A stretch of 51,532 nt of DNA, from positions 1 to 51,532 of the forward strand of contig LBTZ01000002.1 in the NCBI GenBank assembly GCA_000992325.1, written 5' to 3'. Made by a program: the position numbers and the translations under genes. Positions 2,270-49,386 of the stretch are shown here, one piece after another (the first letter of the stretch is position 1; every line of letters begins with the position of its first letter). The stretch is from Parcubacteria group bacterium GW2011_GWD2_38_11 (GTDB taxonomy: Bacteria > Patescibacteriota > Minisyncoccia > Moranbacterales > GWC2-37-73). The notes beneath the pieces were generated by a model. That model was given only the letters and a program-made list of their open reading frames with translations, was not told the DNA's origin and did not search any database.

Positions 2270-4576
2270 ATGAAAAATTTGTTAAATTATATCACAAAAA
2301 ATACGCCCGATGCGCTGCTGACATTTCTGTCTTTTGCATTTGCAATGAACACACTGCTTTTCATTTCGCGCGAGGTAAAAAACCTTTCAATGTTCAATAT
2401 TTCCAGCGACACGACAATTCACTATTTGGCATATTTCATACTCATTGTTTTGACATTCGGAGTCATCGCTTTTTTTTATACCAAAGAAACAAGCTTGAAA
2501 CTGACCATTGAAAAGTTGCTGCTGACTTTTCTGCCAGCAGAACTCTTGATGCTTTATGGTCTCAGCCAATCAACTGATTTTCATTATCTTTTCTATATCG
2601 CATCAGGACTATATGTAATCCTAGCGGGATTCTTTCTGATCAGCAGAAGGAATTTCATATGGAAGGAGAACGAGGTCAAAAACACATTCTCATCTTTCAA
2701 GATATGGGCAAAATTGCAAGGAAAAGTTGCTTGGTTTGTTATTTTTGCCGTGATGCTGACAAATTTGGGACTTGGGACATATAATCTGGCAAAATTTGGA
2801 GCAGTCGATGAGCCTCTTTGGACATTTGATCGGATTCCAAGTTATTGGAAAAATCTCAAGGAAAGAGATTGGAGAAATACCAAAATCAGCGACAAGCCAG
2901 GCATCACAGTGGCAATAATCTCAGGAGCAGGACTCCTATTTGAAAGTCCAAAGACATACAAATCAGCTTATGGCAGAGGATCAGTAGGAACCGAGCTCAA
3001 TCGTTTTGATTTTGAAAAACTGAATTTTGCTTTCAGATTTCCAATCCTACTGTTCACCATCTTAATGCTTCCTTTTTTCTATTTTCTTATGGAAAGACTT
3101 TTAGGAAAGAAAACAGCGCTTTTTTCCTACATTTCCATCGGTCTTTCTCCACTTTTGATTGGGATGGCTAGCATCATAAATCCTGATGCCATCCTTTGGG
3201 TTTTTGCGCCACTTTCACTTCTCTCCTTTTTGGTGTATCAAAAAAGAAGAAATCCTCTCTATCTTTATTTGTCAGGAATATTGCTCGGGTTGGCACTTTT
3301 GACAAAATATGTCGCCAACATTCTTTCCGTTTTCCTTTTGGGTCTTATTTTTGTTGAATATGTTTTCCACAAGGCAAACTATGCAAAAATGACATTGAAA
3401 AGATATCTCAAGGAATCCCTCACGGACTATCTCATTCTCTTTTTTGTTTCGCTGGTGGTTTTTTATATCTTGTTTCCTGCAGTTTGGATAAAACCATCGA
3501 GACTTTTGGAAGGAACACTGCTCAGTCAGGCCTTTGAGAGCACTTGGCCTATTTTTGCTGGTTTTTTTGCGCTCCTGCTAGTTGACATCGCAACAATAGG
3601 CGGAAAAATATCTTCATATGTTTTGGATCTGCTTTCCAAATACAGCAAAATTTTTCTCATTTCAATTTCAGCGCTTTTTCTTTTTTTCATCGCGTTTACT
3701 TTTGCCAACACTTACACAGGAATGTCTTGGTATGATTTTGAAGCGATCATATCTTCGCCGAAATCAGCCTACACTACAGGAGGCTATGATGGACTTTTCT
3801 TTGCAAACTTTTTTCCATTAGTTTTCAGCATAGCTCCACTCTCCCTGATCTTTCTGGTTTTCGCCGCCATTATCAGTATATTTGGAAAAAATATCCCCGC
3901 CAGAACAAGCTCAACCATCTTCTCCCTGACGCTTTTCATCTTCCTATATTATTTGGCAACCACTGTAAACAAGGTTGCAGCAATGAATCGCTATCAAATT
4001 ATGGTCTTTCCATTGGCTATGATATTAGGAGGCATAGGTATGGCCATTTTTTATGAAAAATTCATCAAAAACGAATTCGACAAGAAAAACATCGTTGTGT
4101 TGTTGTTCCTGATTTTCAGTATTGGCACCCTTTATTTCGCCAGACCATTTTTCATAAGCTATGATTCCCCTCTTCTGCCCAACAAATATTATACCGACCT
4201 CAAAGATATGGGCACCGGAAGTTATGAAGCCGCACAATTCATCAACTCTCTGCCAAATCCTGAAGAGTTGCAAGTATGGACCGATAAAAAAGGTGTCTGC
4301 CCATTTCTCAAAGCGAAATGCTATTCTGGCTTTACCTATCCAAGACTGCGCGCTGCAAATCTTGACTACGCCATTGTTTCTGCTGGAAGATCTGCCAGAA
4401 CAAAAAAAATGGTCACTCCTTTGACCATCAAAAAGGATTTGATACGCTTTGACACTCTATACGACAGGGATGACGAGAAAGTTGTCTACAAACTTGAAAT
4501 AAACGGGCGTCCAAGAAATTTCGTAAAAGTAATCGAACTTGATCAGGAATTTTTCGATTTATACAAAAATAACTGA
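2270..4576 (+). CDS. GT-C fold membrane glycosyltransferase (PMT_2/ArnT-like, lipid-carrier dependent)
   Basis: 768-aa polytopic ORF. It has an acidic first-loop motif (AVDEPLW) typical of GT39/GT83 enzymes, many TM helices, and a soluble C-terminal ~130 aa. Confidence 0.72.
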   Translation: MKNLLNYITKNTPDALLTFLSFAFAMNTLLFISREVKNLSMFNISSDTTIHYLAYFILIVLTFGVIAFFYTKETSLKLTIEKLLLTFLPAELLMLYGLSQSTDFHYLFYIASGLYVILAGFFLISRRNFIWKENEVKNTFSSFKIWAKLQGKVAWFVIFAVMLTNLGLGTYNLAKFGAVDEPLWTFDRIPSYWKNLKERDWRNTKISDKPGITVAIISGAGLLFESPKTYKSAYGRGSVGTELNRFDFEKLNFAFRFPILLFTILMLPFFYFLMERLLGKKTALFSYISIGLSPLLIGMASIINPDAILWVFAPLSLLSFLVYQKRRNPLYLYLSGILLGLALLTKYVANILSVFLLGLIFVEYVFHKANYAKMTLKRYLKESLTDYLILFFVSLVVFYILFPAVWIKPSRLLEGTLLSQAFESTWPIFAGFFALLLVDIATIGGKISSYVLDLLSKYSKIFLISISALFLFFIAFTFANTYTGMSWYDFEAIISSPKSAYTTGGYDGLFFANFFPLVFSIAPLSLIFLVFAAIISIFGKNIPARTSSTIFSLTLFIFLYYLATTVNKVAAMNRYQIMVFPLAMILGGIGMAIFYEKFIKNEFDKKNIVVLLFLIFSIGTLYFARPFFISYDSPLLPNKYYTDLKDMGTGSYEAAQFINSLPNPEELQVWTDKKGVCPFLKAKCYSGFTYPRLRAANLDYAIVSAGRSARTKKMVTPLTIKKDLIRFDTLYDRDDEKVVYKLEINGRPRNFVKVIELDQEFFDLYKNN

Positions 4577-9968: not shown

Positions 9969-10006
9969 AAAAAACTAAAGGGGGTGCCAAAAAGAATTTT
10001 GATGCT

Positions 10007-10109
10007 ATATGTTCTATGTTATATACTCTATGAATCTTGTTATATGTTTTATGTTATATGAATGTTATTATATGTTCTATGTTATGTGCTCTATGAATCT
10101 TGTTATATG
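10007..10109. repeat. two direct ~40-bp copies (period ~62 bp) forming the right arm(s)
   Basis: tatatgttctatgttatatactctatgaatcttgttatat (10007-10046) and tatatgttctatgttatgtgctctatgaatcttgttatatg (10069-10109). Confidence 0.7.
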
Positions 10110-18487: not shown

Positions 18488-18776
18488 AAAAATAAAGGAA
18501 ACAAAAAAAGAATTAGGATTGGATGATATAGCCAGAATTGTTCAGAATGGATTTTTAAAAATAGACGAAAGATTTGATGGTATGAACAAAAGATTTGATG
18601 GTGTAGAAGAAAGATTAGATGGTGTAGAAGAAAGATTAGATGGTGTAGAAGAAAGATTAGCAAGCGTTGAAAAGAAAATTGACCGTATTGAAGGTGAAAT
18701 TATCAAGAAAGTTGACACGGTTAAATATAACACAACCAAATATCGCGTGAAAAAGCTGGAAGAGAAATTTGCATAA
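18465..18776 (+). CDS. coiled-coil protein with tandem heptad repeats
   Basis: 103 aa reading ERFDGMNKRFDGVEERLDGVEERLDGVEERLASVEKKIDRIEGE. It is encoded by three perfect 21-bp DNA repeats. Confidence 0.6.
   Translation: MKTKKMNKKIKETKKELGLDDIARIVQNGFLKIDERFDGMNKRFDGVEERLDGVEERLDGVEERLASVEKKIDRIEGEIIKKVDTVKYNTTKYRVKKLEEKFA
18597..18659 (+). repeat. perfect 21-bp tandem repeat x3 inside a CDS
   Basis: gatggtgtagaagaaagatta occurs three times, preceded by two degenerate copies from 18567. Confidence 0.95.
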
Positions 18777-19611: not shown

Positions 19612-19818
19612 TTGTTTTTTGTTTTTATTGTTTATAATGATATTATATCACTTATTTATTTTGACTGCAAGAACAGGGTTAATATTAATCAGTCAATACT
19701 AACCCTAATTAATATTTTTACTTATTCCAGCCATATATAACTGGGTTTTTGACGTTGTTTAATCCCCTACATCCATATATTAATTACAGGCGGATTTAAA
19801 GAATAATCCTCCACCACT

Positions 19819-19917
19819 TTATAAACTTTAGAAACCTTATGAACTTTATGAACTATTTTTATAAACCTTAAAAACTTTATGAACATTATGAACTATTTTT
19901 TATAAGCCTTAAAAACC
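19819..19917 (+). repeat. ~41-bp AT-rich tandem repeat, 2.4 copies
   Basis: ttataaactttagaaaccttatgaactttatgaactattttt / ataaaccttaaaaactttatgaacattatgaactatttttt / ataagccttaaaaacc. Confidence 0.85.
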
Positions 19918-19922
19918 ATTAG

Positions 19923-19950
19923 TTGCCTTTTCTCCCCCTTTTGATATAAT
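19923..19950 (+). promoter_or_regulatory. candidate promoter with extended -10, facing the repeat-rich leader of the GT2 fragment
   Basis: TTGCCT, a 16-nt spacer, then TGaTATAAT. Confidence 0.35.
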
Positions 19951-20006
19951 AAAATAGCTTTAATAAAAGCGTTTATGCGCTTTTTTACATACAGCCACCC
20001 CTATTA

Positions 20007-20110
20007 TGTCATTCCCGTGAAAACGGGAATCCAGGCCCGCATTTTATTCTGTCATTCCGGACTTGCCGTGCCCGCCCCTGGAGGGATCCGGAATCCAGAC
20101 CCGCATTTTA
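20007..20110 (+). repeat. two tandem GC-rich palindromic mini-elements (tgtcattcc...ggaatccag.cccgcatttta)
   Basis: 20007-20046 reads tgtcattcccgtgaaaacgggaatccaggcccgcatttta. 20050-20110 reads tgtcattccggacttgccgtgcccgcccctggagggatccggaatccagacccgcatttta. Confidence 0.85.
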
Positions 20111-20190
20111 ACTTTACAAACCTTATAACTTTATAAACTTTCTGCATTCTTACTTTACAAACCTTAGAAACTTTATGAACTTTACGAACC
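20111..20190 (+). repeat. AT-rich repeat related to 19819-19917
   Basis: actttacaaaccttataactttataaacttt ... tactttacaaaccttagaaactttatgaactttacgaacc. It overlaps the start of the truncated GT2. Confidence 0.7.
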
Positions 20191-20501
20191 CAAAAACATT
20201 CATCGTCATCCCCGCTTTCAATGAAGAAACGGTTATTCAGGACGTCATCCGAGAAGTTCAGGGTGCTGGATATGAAAATATTATTGTTGTTGATGATGGA
20301 AGCTCCGACAACACTCAAGCAAAAGCCAAGGAGCTGATTGGAAAATTAGCTTTGAGACACAAAATCAATCGCGGCAAAGGCGGAGCAACCAAAACTGGCA
20401 TCGAAGCCGCCAAACTATTGGGCGCCGAAATAATAGTGACGATTGACGGCGGTCAGCATGATCCAAAAGACATTTTGGATGCACCAAGAACAGTAGAATG
20501 A
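20175..20501 (+). pseudogene. truncated GT2 glycosyltransferase (N-terminal fragment only)
   Basis: 108 aa. FIVIPAFNEE, VVDDGSSDNT and TIDGGQHDP are the first half of a GT2/GtrB-type domain. The frame then stops and a strong terminator follows. The start codon lies inside a repeat. Confidence 0.6.
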
Positions 20502-23082: not shown

Positions 23083-23173
23083 TGTCATTCCCGCGGAGGC
23101 GGGTCTCGATGCCCCTTGAGGGTAAGTCCAGGTTCTAATGCGGGCCTAGATTCCCTTTTTCAAGGGAATGACA
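23083..23173. repeat. two GC-rich mini-elements in head-to-head (inverted) orientation
   Basis: It begins tgtcattcccgcggaggcggg and ends taatgcgggcctagattccctttttcaagggaatgaca. The end is the reverse complement of a 20007-type unit. Confidence 0.8.
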
Positions 23174-27461: not shown

Positions 27462-30119
27462 TTAAAGCTTTACATCCTTTTTAAGCGCAATATCACGCCT
27501 TGATCTCCTCCAACCATAACCCAAATAACCGAGGCATGCAAGCAGGGTTACAAGGGAAATGCCAGCTCCAACATAGAAAAGTCGCTGCGGCCAAAATTCG
27601 ACAACGAGCTCCATATCATACGTGCCATCTGAATTTTTTTTGCAAAAACTCTCATTGTCATTCCCGCGAAGGCGGGAATCCAGTCCGCACAACTCCTCAA
27701 CATCAACGATCCAACTGTTTGCATATCCGTTAGCCATAAGATGACTTTCTTCTGGCAATTGCACCACGCTATCATTATGAGCGAAGTCGAGAAATCTGTC
27801 CTCACTGTCTCCCGCCTTTTTTGCCAACCAAGTTTCAAAAATGTTCCCATTTGGCAAATTATCATTTTGAATCGTGCCTTGAAAATTTTTGGAAATAAAA
27901 TCAATATTGTATTTTTCAATATAATCCGGAACTTCTTCTTGCTTGTTACTGTCCCACTTCTGATGGCCAATTTCCTTTTCTTTGCCATCCCCCAACGTGC
28001 TAACTAACCCATTATCCAAAAAGCCAGCCAACTCTTCTTTTGATGCTTGGTCATCACCATTACCATCTAAAATCTTGTAATTATCCAAATTTGCATCTTG
28101 TATCTTGTTTTTTGTTTTTTGTTTTGGCGAAGCCAAATAGGCTTTCCATCCATCATGATATCCTTCAGACATTACCAACGGAAATACGCCTCTTGCATTA
28201 TTAATTCTAACCCTATATTTAGTTGGATTAATTTTTGAAAATTCCAAAAATGGCAACACCTTTTCATCTTCTTTTTGAGTGAAATATTGCCTTATAGAAT
28301 CCTTTCTATTAAAATTTTGCTTTGATAGGAATACTGACGAATTGATTTCGAAATTTTTATCAGCAAATACCTTCCCAATTTCAGATTCATCTAATTGTGA
28401 GATAAGCAACTTATTTGGAATGTAAAAATGAGGAAGGAAGGAATTATTATCCACAGAATAAATATCAAGCCTTCCAATACTTTTCTTATTTAATTCTTTT
28501 ATTTCTTCAAAACAGGAACTTGTTGATGGTAAAACGTCATTTTGCATTATCACATTTTTTATATTTTGAACAGCGAATGCCTTCCTCAAAATATCAATGT
28601 CTCTCTTGGTATTGTATTCGTTATAACATAATTGTTTTTTAATATTTTCATCGACGTATTTACCACTAAAAGGCGTGAAACTGGTGGTTTGTTTCATAAA
28701 GAACCGCAAGATGTTTGCTGAATCAAAATTATTTCCATTCCAGCTAAATAAGGTGTATATAAACTTGGAACTAAAGTATTGATCTGGAAAAATCTTGTAT
28801 GTATTTATTATTTTTTTATCCTTAAGTGCGACTTCATTTTCAAAATAATATCCAGGAACCTTAGTGGGCTTAGTCAAGGTGACAAAAAATTTATCAAAAA
28901 AATAATAGGAACTTAGCACAACCATAGGTATAAGAAAAAGCATTTTTATCTTATTATTTGATTTCATTTTTTCCAAAGCCAATATAAATAAAATTACAAA
29001 GGCAAAATGAACAACGAACTGAAATTTGAAGAGGGCTCTAAATAGACTAAATCCTGGAATATATTCCCAGAGCAATAAAAATAATCTACCCAGTGGATTA
29101 TTGGTTCCCATGGAAAATGCATAAGAAAATACGAAGATAACAATAAAAAAAATACTCAATTTCTTATTCCGAGAGCCCTTTGCGTAAAAAAATAAATGAA
29201 TACAGAAAACAAAAATGGCTATACTAAAAGCTGCAACTACTATATAATTTCTCGTAAAAAAACCTGCCGGATGATTTGGGTTATTTACGAAACTATGGGA
29301 GAACATGAATGGCAAAAAACTTTTAATTTGCCTACTACTTTCAGACAATACCCCCAACGCTGCATCATCCGAGTAAAAAACTATTGATTGATTTGGGCTG
29401 TTTTTTTTAATCAGAGCATCATAAGCTGGATTCATCAACCAAAAGGCATTCAAAAAAATAAAAAAACATATCGCAAACAATGACTTTGCTTTATTTTTCA
29501 ATAAATATCGCCATTTAAAAACTACTACATATAAGAAAACCACAGTCAATAGTAATACAGTGTTGAGGATATAAGAATTTACAAATAAAACAAGCATCGA
29601 CAGAACAAACACATCTTTGAATACGATCGTTCTACCTCTACAGCTGAACAAGTAGCCAATGAATAAATTAACGAATACAAAAGAGTATGCAATATCACTC
29701 TGACTCAAAACTATACCAGCAATAAGAGGATTAACAACCACGAAAAACATTACCAGCACATGGTCAATAATATTTGCCTGCTTAAATACGTTTTTTGTAA
29801 GATATATACTAGATACAATCAATCCGAAAATTGTTCCATAAAAATATAGTATGCTAACAAAATATACATCAAAAAAATGTGTCAGTATGTAAAAAATGGA
29901 TTGGAAGGGAAAAGAGATAATCATCATTGGTATGTAGTATCCATTGTCGTTATTCATCCATATAAAAGGATTCAGTAAATAAGAATTATTCTTCCACAAA
30001 CTAAAATTTCCATCTCCAAACAAAATTAATCCATTTTGACTTTTATAAAAAACAAAAGAAAAAAACAGTATACTAACTGCTGCCAACAAGAGACCAAGTT
30101 TTTTATTTATATTGAACAT
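27462..30119 (-). CDS. large polytopic GT-C-like membrane protein (YfhO-like, tentative) carrying an in-frame repeat insertion
   Basis: 885 aa with the same architecture as 23670..25847. The shared C-terminal block reads GYANSW...VVEFWPQRLFYVG plus a terminal TM. It contains the GC-rich element at 27656-27690. Confidence 0.65.
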   Translation of the reverse strand: MFNINKKLGLLLAAVSILFFSFVFYKSQNGLILFGDGNFSLWKNNSYLLNPFIWMNNDNGYYIPMMIISFPFQSIFYILTHFFDVYFVSILYFYGTIFGLIVSSIYLTKNVFKQANIIDHVLVMFFVVVNPLIAGIVLSQSDIAYSFVFVNLFIGYLFSCRGRTIVFKDVFVLSMLVLFVNSYILNTVLLLTVVFLYVVVFKWRYLLKNKAKSLFAICFFIFLNAFWLMNPAYDALIKKNSPNQSIVFYSDDAALGVLSESSRQIKSFLPFMFSHSFVNNPNHPAGFFTRNYIVVAAFSIAIFVFCIHLFFYAKGSRNKKLSIFFIVIFVFSYAFSMGTNNPLGRLFLLLWEYIPGFSLFRALFKFQFVVHFAFVILFILALEKMKSNNKIKMLFLIPMVVLSSYYFFDKFFVTLTKPTKVPGYYFENEVALKDKKIINTYKIFPDQYFSSKFIYTLFSWNGNNFDSANILRFFMKQTTSFTPFSGKYVDENIKKQLCYNEYNTKRDIDILRKAFAVQNIKNVIMQNDVLPSTSSCFEEIKELNKKSIGRLDIYSVDNNSFLPHFYIPNKLLISQLDESEIGKVFADKNFEINSSVFLSKQNFNRKDSIRQYFTQKEDEKVLPFLEFSKINPTKYRVRINNARGVFPLVMSEGYHDGWKAYLASPKQKTKNKIQDANLDNYKILDGNGDDQASKEELAGFLDNGLVSTLGDGKEKEIGHQKWDSNKQEEVPDYIEKYNIDFISKNFQGTIQNDNLPNGNIFETWLAKKAGDSEDRFLDFAHNDSVVQLPEESHLMANGYANSWIVDVEELCGLDSRLRGNDNESFCKKNSDGTYDMELVVEFWPQRLFYVGAGISLVTLLACLGYLGYGWRRSRRDIALKKDVKL
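27656..27690. repeat. GC-rich mini-element inside the 885-aa CDS
   Basis: tgtcattcccgcgaaggcgggaatccagtccgcac. It is translated on the minus strand as LCGLDSRLRGNDN. Confidence 0.85.
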
Positions 30120-41312: not shown

Positions 41313-41822
41313 TTAGTTACTATATTTTAGAAATGGAGCATTTTTCCTCTCAATCAGGAATTTTTGATAATGCTGCGGTGTGACAATGAGTTTACTTTCG
41401 AAATTCTTACTTGCCCTGAAAATGATTGAATACGCTTTGACTGACATGCCATCATTCTGAAAGGTGTCGAAACACAAATGAAAAAACATACCCAGTGCAA
41501 GCGCAAATGAAACTGATTTCAAAACCAGTTGTTTTTTGACCAAAAAGGCCACTGCTAATAGGATGATAACATATTCCCACCCATGAAACAACATATATAT
41601 CTTCCCGCTTTGCAAAAATTGATAGCCATGAGAAAAATATCCCAAGTCAAACTTAAAGCCAAGTGCCAAGAAATAATCAATAAAATGATCCATATCAACC
41701 AACACTCCGCCAACAATCGCCGCCACAAAAGAGACTAGAGGGTTTTTCCATAGTCTCCAGGTGATAATGCCCGCAAGAATGCTCAGGGCAACATGAATGG
41801 ACAGATGCAGTGTTAAACTCAT
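41313..41822 (-). CDS. membrane protein, DUF457/YdjM-like metal-dependent hydrolase (tentative)
   Basis: The track ORF extends to 41897. The ATG at 41822 (MSLTLHLSIHV) overlaps the upstream stop as ATGA. It has 4-5 TM helices and a VDMDHFIDY motif. Confidence 0.5.
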   Translation of the reverse strand: MSLTLHLSIHVALSILAGIITWRLWKNPLVSFVAAIVGGVLVDMDHFIDYFLALGFKFDLGYFSHGYQFLQSGKIYMLFHGWEYVIILLAVAFLVKKQLVLKSVSFALALGMFFHLCFDTFQNDGMSVKAYSIIFRASKNFESKLIVTPQHYQKFLIERKNAPFLKYSN

Positions 41823-43381
41823 AGTGATGTTGGTTTTTCCTTGTTGCTTTTCCCAAAATCCATCAGATGGCCCATCACCTTTAATCCAGCAACCCAAATA
41901 TATTTCACATCAGCAAAGGTTCGAATGGACAAGAGTTTTTTGATGATGAATTTTGGAGTTATGAATGATTTGTATAGGCTCTGCACAAGTTCCTTGGCAT
42001 CCTGAGATGAAAGTGGTGATTTCATGACCATTTCTCGTTGATCAAATCGCGAATATTCTCTGGTGACCAACAAATCATTTTCGTCGCAATCCTTATACAA
42101 AGGCGTGCCCGGATATGGAATTACGATCGTTCCCTGCAGTGTATCCACATAGCCCTTCTTGAAAAGATCCGCTGCCTTGTCGATGGTTTTTTGAGCCATC
42201 TCTTTTGTTTCCCAGGGATATCCGATCATGGTTGTGATATGGGGCTCCAATCCTGCCTCTTTGCACATCTTGAGACCGGGTTCAATCTCTTCCACTTTCA
42301 AATTCTTGCATATTTTGTCCAATGTTTCCTGATTTGCCGATTCCAATCCAAAAAGAATGAATCGAAAGCCTGCTCGCTTCATCAAGCGCCACACTCGCGG
42401 CTCTGAAATCCCGGTGATACGCATGTTGCAGCTCATCACAACTTTTTTGTTGTATCCGCGTTCAATCATGCCTTTGCAAAATTCTTCCAGCCATGGACCA
42501 ATTGGCAAACTTCCAGAATCTTCCATGATTTCCTTTACGCCAAGATCAATCAAGTTCCCCACCTCATCCAAAGCATTTTTTGCGCTGCGTGTTCTGAAAT
42601 GTTTTCCTGGAAAAAATGTTGTCCAGCTGCAAAAAGTGCATTTTCCCCACCAACAATCACGTCCGCTCATCATATATGTCCCAGGAGTGAACTTGAAATT
42701 TCCATTTTTATAGGCATAATCCTTCCATTTGGTGAGTTCGCGATCAATCATTGGCAAGGTGTCCAAGTCATGGTTTGAAAGATCCGATGGACCTGAATTA
42801 GTGATTGTCATTCCGGACTCCGATCCGGAATCTAGAGATTCCTGAACTAAATTCAAGGCAGGCTCCGAAACAAGCTCAGGATGACACTCGCTGGGCTGAC
42901 GGTACCAAAAACCTCCTTCAAGTTCGCTGTTTTTACTGAGATGATCAGCCAAGCTCAAAAGCATAAAGTCATAGTCGCCTGAAGCAATCACGAAATCAAC
43001 TTTTGACTTTTCCATTGTTTCCTCTGGCCTCGCGGTCACATGATCTCCCATCATCACCACCTTGGAATTAGGAAGTTTTTCTTTTAATTCACCCACGATT
43101 TTCCAATGCATTTCAACCACTGGAGTTTTGGTTTCAATCGCAATCAGATCAGGTTTCTGCTCAATGATATCTGCAAGCCATTGCTGATATGTTTTTTCCT
43201 CAGCAATTCCATCATCCCAAATAACTTCATATCCCTTTTCCTTGAGCAATGTGGCTGCATAGGCAGGAATCACGGGATAGATATATGTTGGGTTATTGAA
43301 CCACTGAAATTGTCTGTTCTGCGAGAGAAGAGCAATTCCCTTGTTTGATTCTAGCGGTGGATAAGAAATGGCTATTCGCAT
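41819..43381 (-). CDS. B12-binding-domain radical SAM protein
   Basis: 520 aa. The N-terminal region is cobalamin-binding-like (DLIAIETKTPVV...VMMGDHVT). A cluster motif RDCWWGKCTFC opens the radical SAM core, and a C-terminal extension follows. It carries a repeat insertion at 42806-42886. Confidence 0.85.
   Translation of the reverse strand: MRIAISYPPLESNKGIALLSQNRQFQWFNNPTYIYPVIPAYAATLLKEKGYEVIWDDGIAEEKTYQQWLADIIEQKPDLIAIETKTPVVEMHWKIVGELKEKLPNSKVVMMGDHVTARPEETMEKSKVDFVIASGDYDFMLLSLADHLSKNSELEGGFWYRQPSECHPELVSEPALNLVQESLDSGSESGMTITNSGPSDLSNHDLDTLPMIDRELTKWKDYAYKNGNFKFTPGTYMMSGRDCWWGKCTFCSWTTFFPGKHFRTRSAKNALDEVGNLIDLGVKEIMEDSGSLPIGPWLEEFCKGMIERGYNKKVVMSCNMRITGISEPRVWRLMKRAGFRFILFGLESANQETLDKICKNLKVEEIEPGLKMCKEAGLEPHITTMIGYPWETKEMAQKTIDKAADLFKKGYVDTLQGTIVIPYPGTPLYKDCDENDLLVTREYSRFDQREMVMKSPLSSQDAKELVQSLYKSFITPKFIIKKLLSIRTFADVKYIWVAGLKVMGHLMDFGKSNKEKPTSL
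42806..42886. repeat. composite of two GC-rich mini-elements inside the radical SAM CDS
   Basis: tgtcattccggactccgatccggaatctag followed by ...cctgaactaaattcaaggcaggctccgaaacaagctcaggatgaca. It is translated as CHPELVSEPALNLVQESLDSGSESGMT. Confidence 0.8.
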
Positions 43382-43395
43382 AATTTACTGTAATT

Positions 43396-43424
43396 GCAGA
43401 TCCTGAAACAAGTTCAGGATGACA
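43396..43424. repeat. palindromic mini-element (tgtcatcctgaacttgtttcaggatctgc type), intergenic
   Basis: gcagatcctgaaacaagttcaggatgaca contains a perfect 8-bp stem (atcctgaa/ttcaggat). It matches the in-CDS copy at 42858-42886 at about 24/29 positions. Confidence 0.8.
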
Positions 43425-43431
43425 AGTATTA

Positions 43432-44409
43432 TTATCGTAATTTACTGATTAAATTTTTAGTGAAAACAAAACCTCTGATAAAATTTGCACCATACACCAA
43501 ATGCGTGAGAAATATGCAATAAAGAGCATTTGAGATTATGAGCAGATTTTTTTCATGCTTATGGATGTCATGGAAGGCCTTCATCATTGCTAAGCCATAT
43601 ACAGCCCATCCGATCAGATACAACAGCAAAATAAATTCACTATAAAAACTCAAAATTCCACCCAGAACCACGAACAATAAAAAGAAACTCGGTACAAAAT
43701 AAATCAGTTTAAAAGAATTCTCTGGATATCTTTTGGCGAAAAAACCTCGATGTAATCCATATCCACCAACCTGTTTCAGATGCTTGCCAAGCCCTGCTCT
43801 GCGATGATGGTACACGATCAACTGTGGATTATAAATGATACTTTTCGGATATTTTTTAATCAAATCCAAACAAAGTTTCGTGTCTTCTCCTGGCCAAAAG
43901 TCGCCATTAAAGCCTCCAATTTCGCCAAATTTTTCTTTTCTGATTGAAAAATTCACACTTGGCCAATCATCAACTGAACCTCTTTTGCCAACGGAGGCAT
44001 ATCGCTCAGGACATCCACCCGACAGCGCGCTCAAAAAAACCGCTCCACTCACCTTTTGCCAGAAGCTGTCACTGGGAGGTGTTAGTGCCGGTCCCCCCAC
44101 CGCAATGACCTTCTCATCAAGAAAGTCCTGTTCCAAAATATCCAAGAAATTAGTCTCTGGATATGCATCGTCATCAATAAAAACAAGGATTTCTCCCTGC
44201 GCATCCTCGATTGCCTTTGTTCTCTTAACCGCAGGACCACAATGTCCAGTGGCAATCTGTCTTGTCTTTGGCCAACCTTCTCCGGTTGCCTCATCAGGAT
44301 AAACAATAATCTCATAATCATCTCGTGGAATATTCAACACCATTGACACTGCCTCGCGGACATAATCATTGATTGCCTTAACTGGAATAATAAAACTGTA
44401 TTTAATCAT
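43432..44409 (-). CDS. GT2 family glycosyltransferase with C-terminal TM helices
   Basis: 325 aa with YSFIIPVKA, VFIDDDAYP and WPGEDTKLC, plus 3 C-terminal TM helices. Confidence 0.8.
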   Translation of the reverse strand: MIKYSFIIPVKAINDYVREAVSMVLNIPRDDYEIIVYPDEATGEGWPKTRQIATGHCGPAVKRTKAIEDAQGEILVFIDDDAYPETNFLDILEQDFLDEKVIAVGGPALTPPSDSFWQKVSGAVFLSALSGGCPERYASVGKRGSVDDWPSVNFSIRKEKFGEIGGFNGDFWPGEDTKLCLDLIKKYPKSIIYNPQLIVYHHRRAGLGKHLKQVGGYGLHRGFFAKRYPENSFKLIYFVPSFFLLFVVLGGILSFYSEFILLLYLIGWAVYGLAMMKAFHDIHKHEKNLLIISNALYCIFLTHLVYGANFIRGFVFTKNLISKLR

Positions 44410-48299: not shown

Positions 48300-48625
48300 A
48301 AAAGCTCCTTTCGTCCTACTGGTTGGATTTGAACTGCTTTATATATCTACTCTATTGTTATGTTAAAACTACTAAATCACCATCCTACCTTTATACAGCA
48401 TTTTCAATATCCTGTCAAGCCCCCGTAATATCCCAATAGCTTGGAAACTTTTCTGGCATACTAATTAGTTATCAATTAACGTTCCAAGCTATTAGTTAGA
48501 AGACCACCCCCTAGAAATACATCCATTTATAGAATGTAACATTTTTCACATAAACCCTTCCACAAACCCGACGCCATATCTTTTTAATTCAACATATATC
48601 TTCTCACCACCTTCCAAACCAACAT

Positions 48626-48663
48626 ATACCAAAACCAGACGACCGCATAGTTTTGGTATATGT
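48626..48663. repeat. 36-38 bp palindromic repeat, copy 1
   Basis: ataccaaaaccagacgaccgcatagttttggtatatg, with a 10-bp stem ataccaaaac/gttttggtat. Confidence 0.85.
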
Positions 48664-49350: not shown

Positions 49351-49386
49351 ATACCAAAACTCGACGACCGCATAGTTTTGGCATAT
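49351..49386. repeat. 36-38 bp palindromic repeat, copy 2
   Basis: ataccaaaactcgacgaccgcatagttttggcatat. It differs from copy 1 at 3 positions. Confidence 0.85.

Follow-up and report, generated by a model that had tools for sequence, protein, structure and literature searches.

The gene for a B12-binding radical SAM protein in a 51,532-nucleotide (nt) stretch of contig LBTZ01000002.1 from the Parcubacteria group bacterium GW2011_GWD2_38_11 carries 81 nt that are translated as part of the enzyme, and we confirm that these 81 nt are an in-frame insertion of repeat origin. We call the whole stretch of DNA that was analysed the window; this 51.5-kb window is the DNA of the source genome covered here. 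Taken as a whole, the insertion is best explained, and probably so, as a non-autonomous dimer of tagged hairpins from the CGTC/TGTC-tagged superfamily of repetitive extragenic palindromes (REPs) that landed, and was tolerated, in a surface loop of the enzyme.

An in-frame hairpin dimer in a radical SAM gene

The host gene (open reading frame (ORF) 41819-43381, minus strand) lies in a glycosyltransferase/polysaccharide gene cluster and encodes 520 amino acids (aa), with Pfam matches to B12-binding at residues 40-136 and to Radical_SAM at residues 241-402. Residues C243, C248 and C251 form a Cys triad that does not vary within the family. The element, its parts and the neighbouring intergenic copy are located as follows.

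42806-42886, minus strand: in-frame dimer of [T]GTCAT-tagged hairpin repeats with the tags outward (TGTCAT...ATGACA), from sequence and alignment
42859-42886, minus strand: half 1, TGTCAT tag and degenerate CCTGAGC..TTTCGGA hairpin, from its match to the intergenic copy
42835-42858, minus strand: middle 24 nt (8 codons), absent from the elements of the related loci L003, L210 and L009, from alignments
42806-42834, minus strand: half 2, TAGAT-TCCGGA-TCGGAG-TCCGGA-ATGACA with the tag at the 3' end, from DNA folding
43396-43424, minus strand: single intergenic copy TGTCATCCTGAACTTGTTTCAGGATCTGC between the upstream GT2 gene and the radical SAM start codon (DNA fold z = -3.6)

On the minus strand, positions 42806-42886 read TGTCATCCTGAGCTTGTTTCGGAGCCTGCCTTGAATTTAGTTCAGGAATCTCTAGATTCCGGATCGGAGTCCGGAATGACA, starting with TGTCATCC and ending with GGAATGACA, and are translated as residues 166-192, the Gly/Ser/Glu-rich peptide CHPELVSEPALNLVQESLDSGSESGMT. 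The length is a multiple of three, and the translated frame is the sole open one in that orientation. Judged by its sequence, the element is two repeat units in inverted orientation; an earlier reading made from the sequence alone had described a composite of two palindromic mini-elements translated inside this gene, and sequence, frame and unit anatomy bear it out. Over its first 29 nt, the element agrees with the perfect intergenic copy, which lies 510 nt away, at 24 positions, in line with the figure given in that reading. The second half, read on the plus strand, starts with TGTCATTCCGGAC and shares 13 identical nt with the copy at 20050, in agreement with its earlier assignment to the type seen at 20050 and 27656. 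The shared 13-nt head pattern TGTCATYCYGARC, with at most one mismatch allowed, has four matches against 0.35 expected, a number reached by none of 100 shuffles.

Half 2 forms a perfect 6-bp hairpin (stem ATTCCGGA/TCCGGAAT, 6-nt loop), extended to 8 bp by flanking AT pairs, and this second hairpin is perfect in both the window and its orthologue L003. Of the first hairpin, L003 has the perfect form (CCTGAAC-TTGT-TTCAGG) and the window a degenerate one. Around the middle 24 nt, the DNA fold closes a stem ATCCTGAGCT/AGTTCAGGAAT; this segment may have arisen by tandem duplication of the first hairpin module followed by divergence (PELVSEPA / LNLVQESL), or it may represent a nested loop module. 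Scanning 42400-43700 against Rfam with E-values up to 1 gave no match.

Position of the insert in the protein

The closest homologues are Moranbacteria/Patescibacteria proteins, mostly of 483-495 aa. In an alignment with 120 homologues, about 108 of the 120 have a mere 4-5-residue turn between the motifs GGFWYR and IxNSG, where the window protein has 31 residues. The roughly 27 extra residues expected at this point are thus present, and no linker of such length or sequence is conserved among the homologues. A syntenic homologue with 85% identity (P0002) has the short turn and, at its locus, no palindrome in front of the start codon; in another with 89% identity (P0001), both the loop insert and the upstream palindrome are present.

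A confident AlphaFold model of the window protein, built with a 90-sequence alignment (pLDDT 85.3, pTM 0.87), gives residues 166-188 a pLDDT below 50 and places them between strands 158-163 and 191-195. The insert is therefore predicted to enlarge the tip of a beta-hairpin and to be disordered. It does fall in the linker between the B12-binding domain and the Cys cluster, as first proposed, and the model locates it more exactly at this beta-hairpin tip. With a turn as the site, a length divisible by three, a stop-free frame and predicted disorder, such an insertion would be tolerable and could be kept.

Inserts in the same loop of other lineages

At the DNA level, loop inserts were pairs of units with the tags outward at all seven loci (the window copy, L003, L210, L009, L006, L007 and L008), each unit consisting of a [T]GTCAT tag, a short hairpin and an ATC-YRG tail. 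The genic dimers measure 81 (window), 57 (L003), 57 (L210), 60 (L009), 72 (L006), 81 (L007) and 72 nt (L008), all multiples of three, so that the orthologous dimers of 57-81 nt encode 19-27 aa. All are read in a C-H...M-T frame. We rejected this common frame as a sign of common descent: in six of the seven loci, L008 being the exception, it is the sole stop-free frame in the orientation found, and since stop codons close the other frames the shared frame is uninformative on descent.

In a loop-masked neighbour-joining tree of the radical SAM homologues, which carries no support values, GTCAT-type inserts occur in at least eight lineages, each having sisters with an empty site. Hairpin types vary between the groups (CCTGAAC with TCCGGA, TCCCGCG-type pairs, single units), and left junctions vary between lineages by 0-4 codons. 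The loop of P0013 holds a single unit identical at 28 of 28 positions to the window copy at 27656, and P0012 (L212:1501-3018) and P0084 have in the same beta-hairpin loop an unrelated palindrome, CCCGGTTAAATCCG...CGGAATTTAACGGGG (PVKS...FNGV). Among 121 proteins, GTCAT-type peptides are confined to this one loop.

A second loop that gathers repeats lies in another protein of the window, which holds the following copy.

27656-27683, plus strand: single copy TGTCATTCCCGCGAAGGCGGGAATCCAG within an 885-aa ORF (27462-30119, minus strand)

Read on the minus strand, this copy encodes LDSRLRGND, giving LCG-LDSRLRGND-NESFC between two conserved Cys of the 885-aa hypothetical protein. Its homologues mostly have 6-8 residues between the flanking Cys, and several of them carry other repeat-like inserts in the same loop (DSLPAGRQAAAHGND, RSLDFARDD, PSP..GEG types and HRPPST types). 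The unrelated palindromes in the radical SAM loop and this second multi-repeat loop both point to a filter acting at permissive sites. We read the recurrence as permissive loops filtering frequent insertions, with targeting as the alternative.

Several observations on the radical SAM family stand beside these. At the empty site of L001 (around 3480-3500; GAT GGT CAG ATT), GGTCA lies exactly where the tag starts in filled sites, which could be microhomology or chance. In L007 and L008, a perfect AT-rich palindrome, AATTCAGAAATAACTTCTGAATT (NSEITSEF), directly follows the genic dimer on its 3' side and adds about six residues relative to other homologues. A second insertion hotspot follows window residue ~105 (P0051, P0056, P0086, P0021 and P0075; ..KGEG, ..ERGGG, AKGESAFAG), and N-terminal extensions of the form M..AKGGSAFG are seen in P0011, P0049, P0051 and P0068; these may reflect translation of repeats lying upstream or start codons called wrongly.

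Conservation of half 2

Half 2 is identical between the window and L003 at 29 of 29 positions, in genes that are 80.7% identical (P=0.002), and matches L210 and L009 at 26-27 of 29, in genes of 71-75% identity (P about 0.01-0.02); in L009, its stem shows a compensatory A>C / T>G change. The flanks, taken as 150 nt to either side of the element, agree at 230 of 291 positions (79%), the same as the gene average, and we therefore rejected a recombination patch around the element. Half 2 is either constrained at the DNA or RNA level, or refreshed from other copies, or younger than the split of the genes. The sequence-only reading had held that the genic copy lost its perfect dyad symmetry, as expected of a copy drifting under protein-level constraint. 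The loss of symmetry applies to half 1 only: as half 2 is a perfect hairpin, identical to the orthologue while the gene has diverged, the genic copy is not simply drifting.

Affiliation and distribution of the repeats

CGTC-tagged REPs (families CGTC-1 to -4; Di Nocera et al. 2013, PMC3733652) have a CGTC, often TGTC, tag, an 8-9-bp stem starting with AT, a loop of 4-5 nt and a short tail. They occur mostly as inverted dimers, often heterodimers, and dimers that encode 20-30 aa make up over half of their intragenic copies (PMC3733652). In the window, the present family has eight copies (20007, 20050, 23083, 23173(-), 27656, 42806, 42886(-) and 43424(-)), five of them intergenic and three translated. 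Both ends of the genic element and all eight copies start with TGTC(AT); GTCAT is preceded by T in 67 and by C in 63 of the 141 related copies listed. The stem/loop/tail layout fits the copies at 27656, 20007 and 43424 (the last with an 8-bp stem and a 5-nt loop); half 2 departs from it by its 6-nt loop, and the stem of half 1 is degenerate in the window and perfect in L003. The inverted-dimer arrangement is likewise found, the 81-nt dimer encoding 27 aa and related loci holding 76 unique dimers.

The superfamily takes in the Neisseria dRS3/NTS repeats and the Ssn-related motifs (SRM). Copies 20007 and 27656 also match the published SRM pattern HGTCWYN(0-2)YYVSBRHN(0-5)WNVSBRGN(0-2)RNCYNB, against 0.1 expected, and the copy at 27656 differs from the Neisseria NTS consensus CGTCATTCCCGCGMAVGCGGGAATCYRG by a single mismatch. 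Half 2 departs from the SRM pattern, by reading, at one 3'-arm position. As the strict pattern matches just two window copies, we judged membership by layout.

The exact CCTGAAC-type 25-mer GTCATCCTGAAYTTGWTTCAGGATC occurs in at least 120 stretches of species genomes from many phyla. Its hosts are Patescibacteria (many classes), Bacteroidota, Alpha- and Gammaproteobacteria, Campylobacterota, Spirochaetota, Elusimicrobiota, Melainabacteria, Firmicutes, Dependentiae, Chloroflexota and a Rickettsiaceae metagenome-assembled genome (L111). Among the 141 matches listed, 80 have ATGAC[AG] within 220 nt downstream and 61 are single units; 10 of the listed copies sit within open spans that extend for 60 codons or more to each side, and read CHPELVSGS or ILKQVQDD. 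Related dimers are 53-160 nt long. At the boundaries of 75 dimers (Y/GTCAT...ATGAC/R, with slashes marking the boundary), a search for target-site duplications with k=4-6 gave 0 matches and no excess over shuffled pairings. A loose GTCAT-plus-hairpin finder is noisy in AT-rich DNA (11 matches vs 1-10 in shuffles); the finder used for dimers and tag density required a GC-containing perfect stem and an ATC/AAT tail.

Association with GIY-YIG nuclease genes

Small GIY-YIG ORFs (Pfam PF01541) were found among the loci retrieved by the 25-mer. At L103, the gene is bracketed by TGTCAT-CCTGAAC hairpin-ATCTCG and CGAGAT-hairpin-ATGACA. The nearest named relatives of this nuclease are from Levybacteria and Microgenomates, and in the Levybacteria assembly GCA_001782155.1 the order is TGTCATCCTGAACTTGTTTCAGGATCT, then the GIY-YIG gene at L214:601-888, then AGATTCCGAAATGAATTCGGAATGACA. 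In the PDB, a search gave matches to UPF0213 GIY-YIG proteins only, with weak E-values. A metagenome scan with an alignment of these GIY-YIG proteins yielded 80 loci, without taxonomy, at which an outward tag lies within 250 nt upstream of the gene in 41/76, downstream in 41/76 and on both sides in 30/72. In the 30 GIY-YIG loci with full flanks, the 250 nt to either side of the gene contain 34 tags (2.27 per kb), and the 54 kb lying more than 600 nt from it contain none.

The gene between such ends encodes a GIY-YIG nuclease of ~96 aa, and a transposase lies between them at no locus. All of the window hairpin types CCTGAA-cttgt, TCCCGC-gaag, TCCGGA and TCCCTT-gaaa are present at GIY-YIG loci. 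Because the same layout and the same hairpin types bracket these Ssn-like genes, the genic dimer looks, from sequence comparison, like the two ends of a GIY-YIG unit minus the gene. Ssn nucleases cut and recognise such hairpins as single-stranded DNA (ssDNA; PMC11893778).

The Levybacteria unit has a complete left end, and upstream of it (L214:480-560) the 21-mer CATTCATTGTCATCCTGAACT stands three times in tandem, a stutter of the tag and half of the stem. On the Moranbacteria-like contig L008 (L008:6480-6800), an 84-aa GIY-YIG ORF lies 3.2 kb upstream of the radical SAM gene, between the arms of a 20-bp inverted repeat without mismatches, CCCCCACACCAATTATGTTT / AAACATAATTGGTGTGGGGG, and not between GTCAT hairpins.

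Origin of the insertion

On the explanation that we favour, the dimer would have landed in the surface beta-hairpin turn that follows the B12-binding domain and precedes the radical SAM core. A hairpin-specific, single-strand GIY-YIG nuclease would generate copies in trans without creating target-site duplications, and the recurrence in one loop would be mainly the work of a selective filter through which only permissive loops and open frames survive.

Several results weigh against this explanation. The strict SRM pattern has no match in either genic half, and a six-frame motif scan of the 51.5-kb window revealed no GIY-YIG gene. The GIY-YIG genes of the related loci were assigned by their Pfam PF01541 match only, not to cd10448; NCBIfam holds no Ssn model and gave a single weak, sub-threshold match to a group I intron endonuclease. 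Ssn itself has been shown to be a nuclease restricting transformation, not a transposase, and mobilisation was raised but left untested (PMC11893778). The insertion is not a clean pair of empty and filled sites, as ancestral turn residues are replaced and left junctions are unlike between lineages, and a half 2 that exceeds its gene in conservation is unexplained by simple neutral tolerance.

Two rival histories share the repeat origin. One or very few ancient insertions into the radical SAM gene could have been inherited vertically and lost many times with precision, for example by slippage across the hairpins restoring the short turn. The window, L003, L210 and L009 elements, which agree in their two hairpin types, in the order of these and in the right junction (ATGACA followed by I/V-x-N/S-S-G), would fit such a history, and hairpin dimers are deletion-prone (PMC3733652). 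We nevertheless consider it unlikely, given the insert-bearing lineages with empty-site sisters, at least eight in the tree, and the hairpin types and left junctions that differ between groups; moreover, all empty sites have the family-wide 4-5-residue turn, so that every loss would need to be exact. Slightly less probable still, in our view, is that the element is actively targeted to or maintained at the site by homing-like spread or gene conversion driven by a hairpin-specific nuclease, and not passively tolerated. The conservation of half 2 above gene level against L003, L210 and L009, the compensatory stem change in L009, the same dimer in non-sister lineages and the GGTCA at the empty site of L001 all speak for it; against these stand flanks at the gene average with no transferred patch seen, junctions that are not identical between lineages, unrelated palindromes in the same loop (P0012, P0084) and the loop of another protein that gathers several repeat families.

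The remaining two alternatives concern the nature of the sequence. A classical miniature inverted-repeat transposable element, that is, a deletion derivative of an insertion sequence with a DDE transposase, mobilised by cut-and-paste, would account for the terminal inverted repeats TGTCATYCC...GGRATGACA that are present here, the small size and the many copies. It would also lead one to expect target-site duplications, of which the 75 dimers show none, and a parent insertion sequence with its transposase, where a GIY-YIG nuclease was found between the ends instead; single units are common as well (61/141 among the matches listed), and we regard this origin as very improbable. An ordinary lineage-specific loop expansion, resembling the repeats by chance, finds some footing in the variable loop length and in one clade with a conserved 25-aa insert (GxWN..INW..G.F). 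This last alternative is refuted by the DNA-level identity to intergenic window copies and copies in other phyla, by the first hairpin of L003, a perfect copy of the intergenic one, and by the enrichment of the head pattern over shuffles, and we give it practically no credence.

The tolerated tagged-hairpin dimer thus being our preferred reading, a bolder version of it can be put forward tentatively, as something we find rather doubtful. The tags-outward dimers may be miniatures of a mobile element of uncharacterised type, with a hairpin-specific GIY-YIG ssDNA nuclease as its enzyme, no target-site duplication and 25-nt ends nearly unchanged across phyla; protein loops of the candidate phyla radiation (CPR) would then be repeatedly colonised by copies kept intact at the DNA level, a standing source of loop variation.

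Relation to described repeat systems

Translated palindromic repeats, intragenic CGTC-REP dimers and the Ssn/SRM association are already published; what is new is the host clade. A full-text literature search yielded no paper linking Patescibacteria, GIY-YIG and such repeats. The present case adds CPR/Patescibacteria, with their small genomes, to Rickettsia and those Proteobacteria in which protein-coding palindromic repeats were known, and links translated copies to hairpin repeats recently tied to Ssn GIY-YIG nucleases. It accounts for odd recurrent low-complexity peptides in predicted proteins (CHPELVSGS, ILKQVQDD, LDSRLRGND, CHSREGGN...GMT), which can mislead annotation, alignment and structure prediction. 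The repeated insertions in one loop of an enzyme family are, in addition, a natural data set on targeting versus selection after random insertion; this recurrence in the loop and the conservation of one half-element are the findings that merit further work.

CGTC-1 corresponds to dRS3 in Neisseria, and CGTC-1 and CGTC-4 to RPE-6 and RPE-4 in Rickettsia conorii; no dedicated CGTC-REP enzyme was found in the 2013 study (PMC3733652). Like CGTC-1, the window copies at 27656 and 20007 have an 8-bp stem, a 4-nt loop and a CCA tail. Unlike in CGTC-REPs, the tails of the window CCTGAAC and TCCGGA types are CTG, CTA or CTC and not CCA, the loop of half 2 has 6 nt, and the hosts differ, CGTC-REPs having been described mainly in Alphaproteobacteria and four other phyla, not in CPR/Patescibacteria (PMC3733652). 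We do not equate the tags-outward layout of the window with the head-to-head/tail-to-tail naming of that study.

As in the Neisseria NTS-ssnA-NTS arrangement (PMC11893778), hairpins bracket a small single-domain GIY-YIG gene in the related loci, and as in dRS3-RS-dRS3 NIME units (PMC1797815), dimers have a short spacer. In contrast to Neisseria SRM/SsnA, the window is without the nuclease gene and the genic halves lie off the strict SRM pattern. The function shown in Neisseria is the restriction of transforming ssDNA, and the Ssn paper mentions neither CPR/Patescibacteria nor translated intragenic copies (PMC11893778).

Rickettsia RPEs are palindromes inserted in frame in unrelated housekeeping genes at fold-compatible surface positions, according to accounts of Ogata et al. 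2000 and 2002 as cited in PMC10969869 and PMC3733652. The genic dimer shares with them the in-frame insertion into an ORF at a fold-compatible position; it differs from the RPE-1 type (about 100-150 bp and, in those citing accounts, Rickettsia only) in its Moranbacteria-like CPR host, the likeness being one of description. REP/BIME repeats with RAYT transposases (REPtrons) resemble the present repeats in having tagged hairpins and inverted dimers, in flanking a small gene of their own and in leaving no target-site duplication, whereas the tag there is GTAG and here CGTC/TGTC, and the enzyme there is an HUH tyrosine transposase and here a GIY-YIG nuclease.

Further copies and repeats in the window

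The intergenic copy at 43396-43424 occupies the same place in L003 and L009 and is absent in L001. The other intergenic copies lie in two places.

20007-20098, plus strand: two copies in direct orientation, 20007-20034 (stem TCCCGT) and 20050-20098 (TCCGGA stem, 25-nt loop)
23083-23173, plus strand: tags-outward dimer of 91 nt between convergent genes, with a degenerate left hairpin

The ORFs adjoining intergenic copies are a glycosyltransferase, a dehydrogenase or of no known function. Arrays of 9-nt units (TTTATAAAC / CTTATGAAC type) at 19809-20193 flank the hairpin copies at 20007 and 20050; similar 9-mer arrays occur in L212 upstream of the radical SAM gene, beside a gene of the 23S_rRNA_IVP family. 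A repeat finder reported further window repeats at 18562-18666, 10006-10109 and 48624-48659 / 49351-49386, the kinds being tandem arrays of 21-nt units and of 14-nt units, and an inverted pair of 36 nt whose members are separated by 691 nt. Downstream of the radical SAM gene, a 194-aa membrane-protein ORF (41313-41897, minus strand) overlaps its end by 79 nt, and in P0047 (637 aa) the counterpart of this membrane protein is fused to the radical SAM C terminus.

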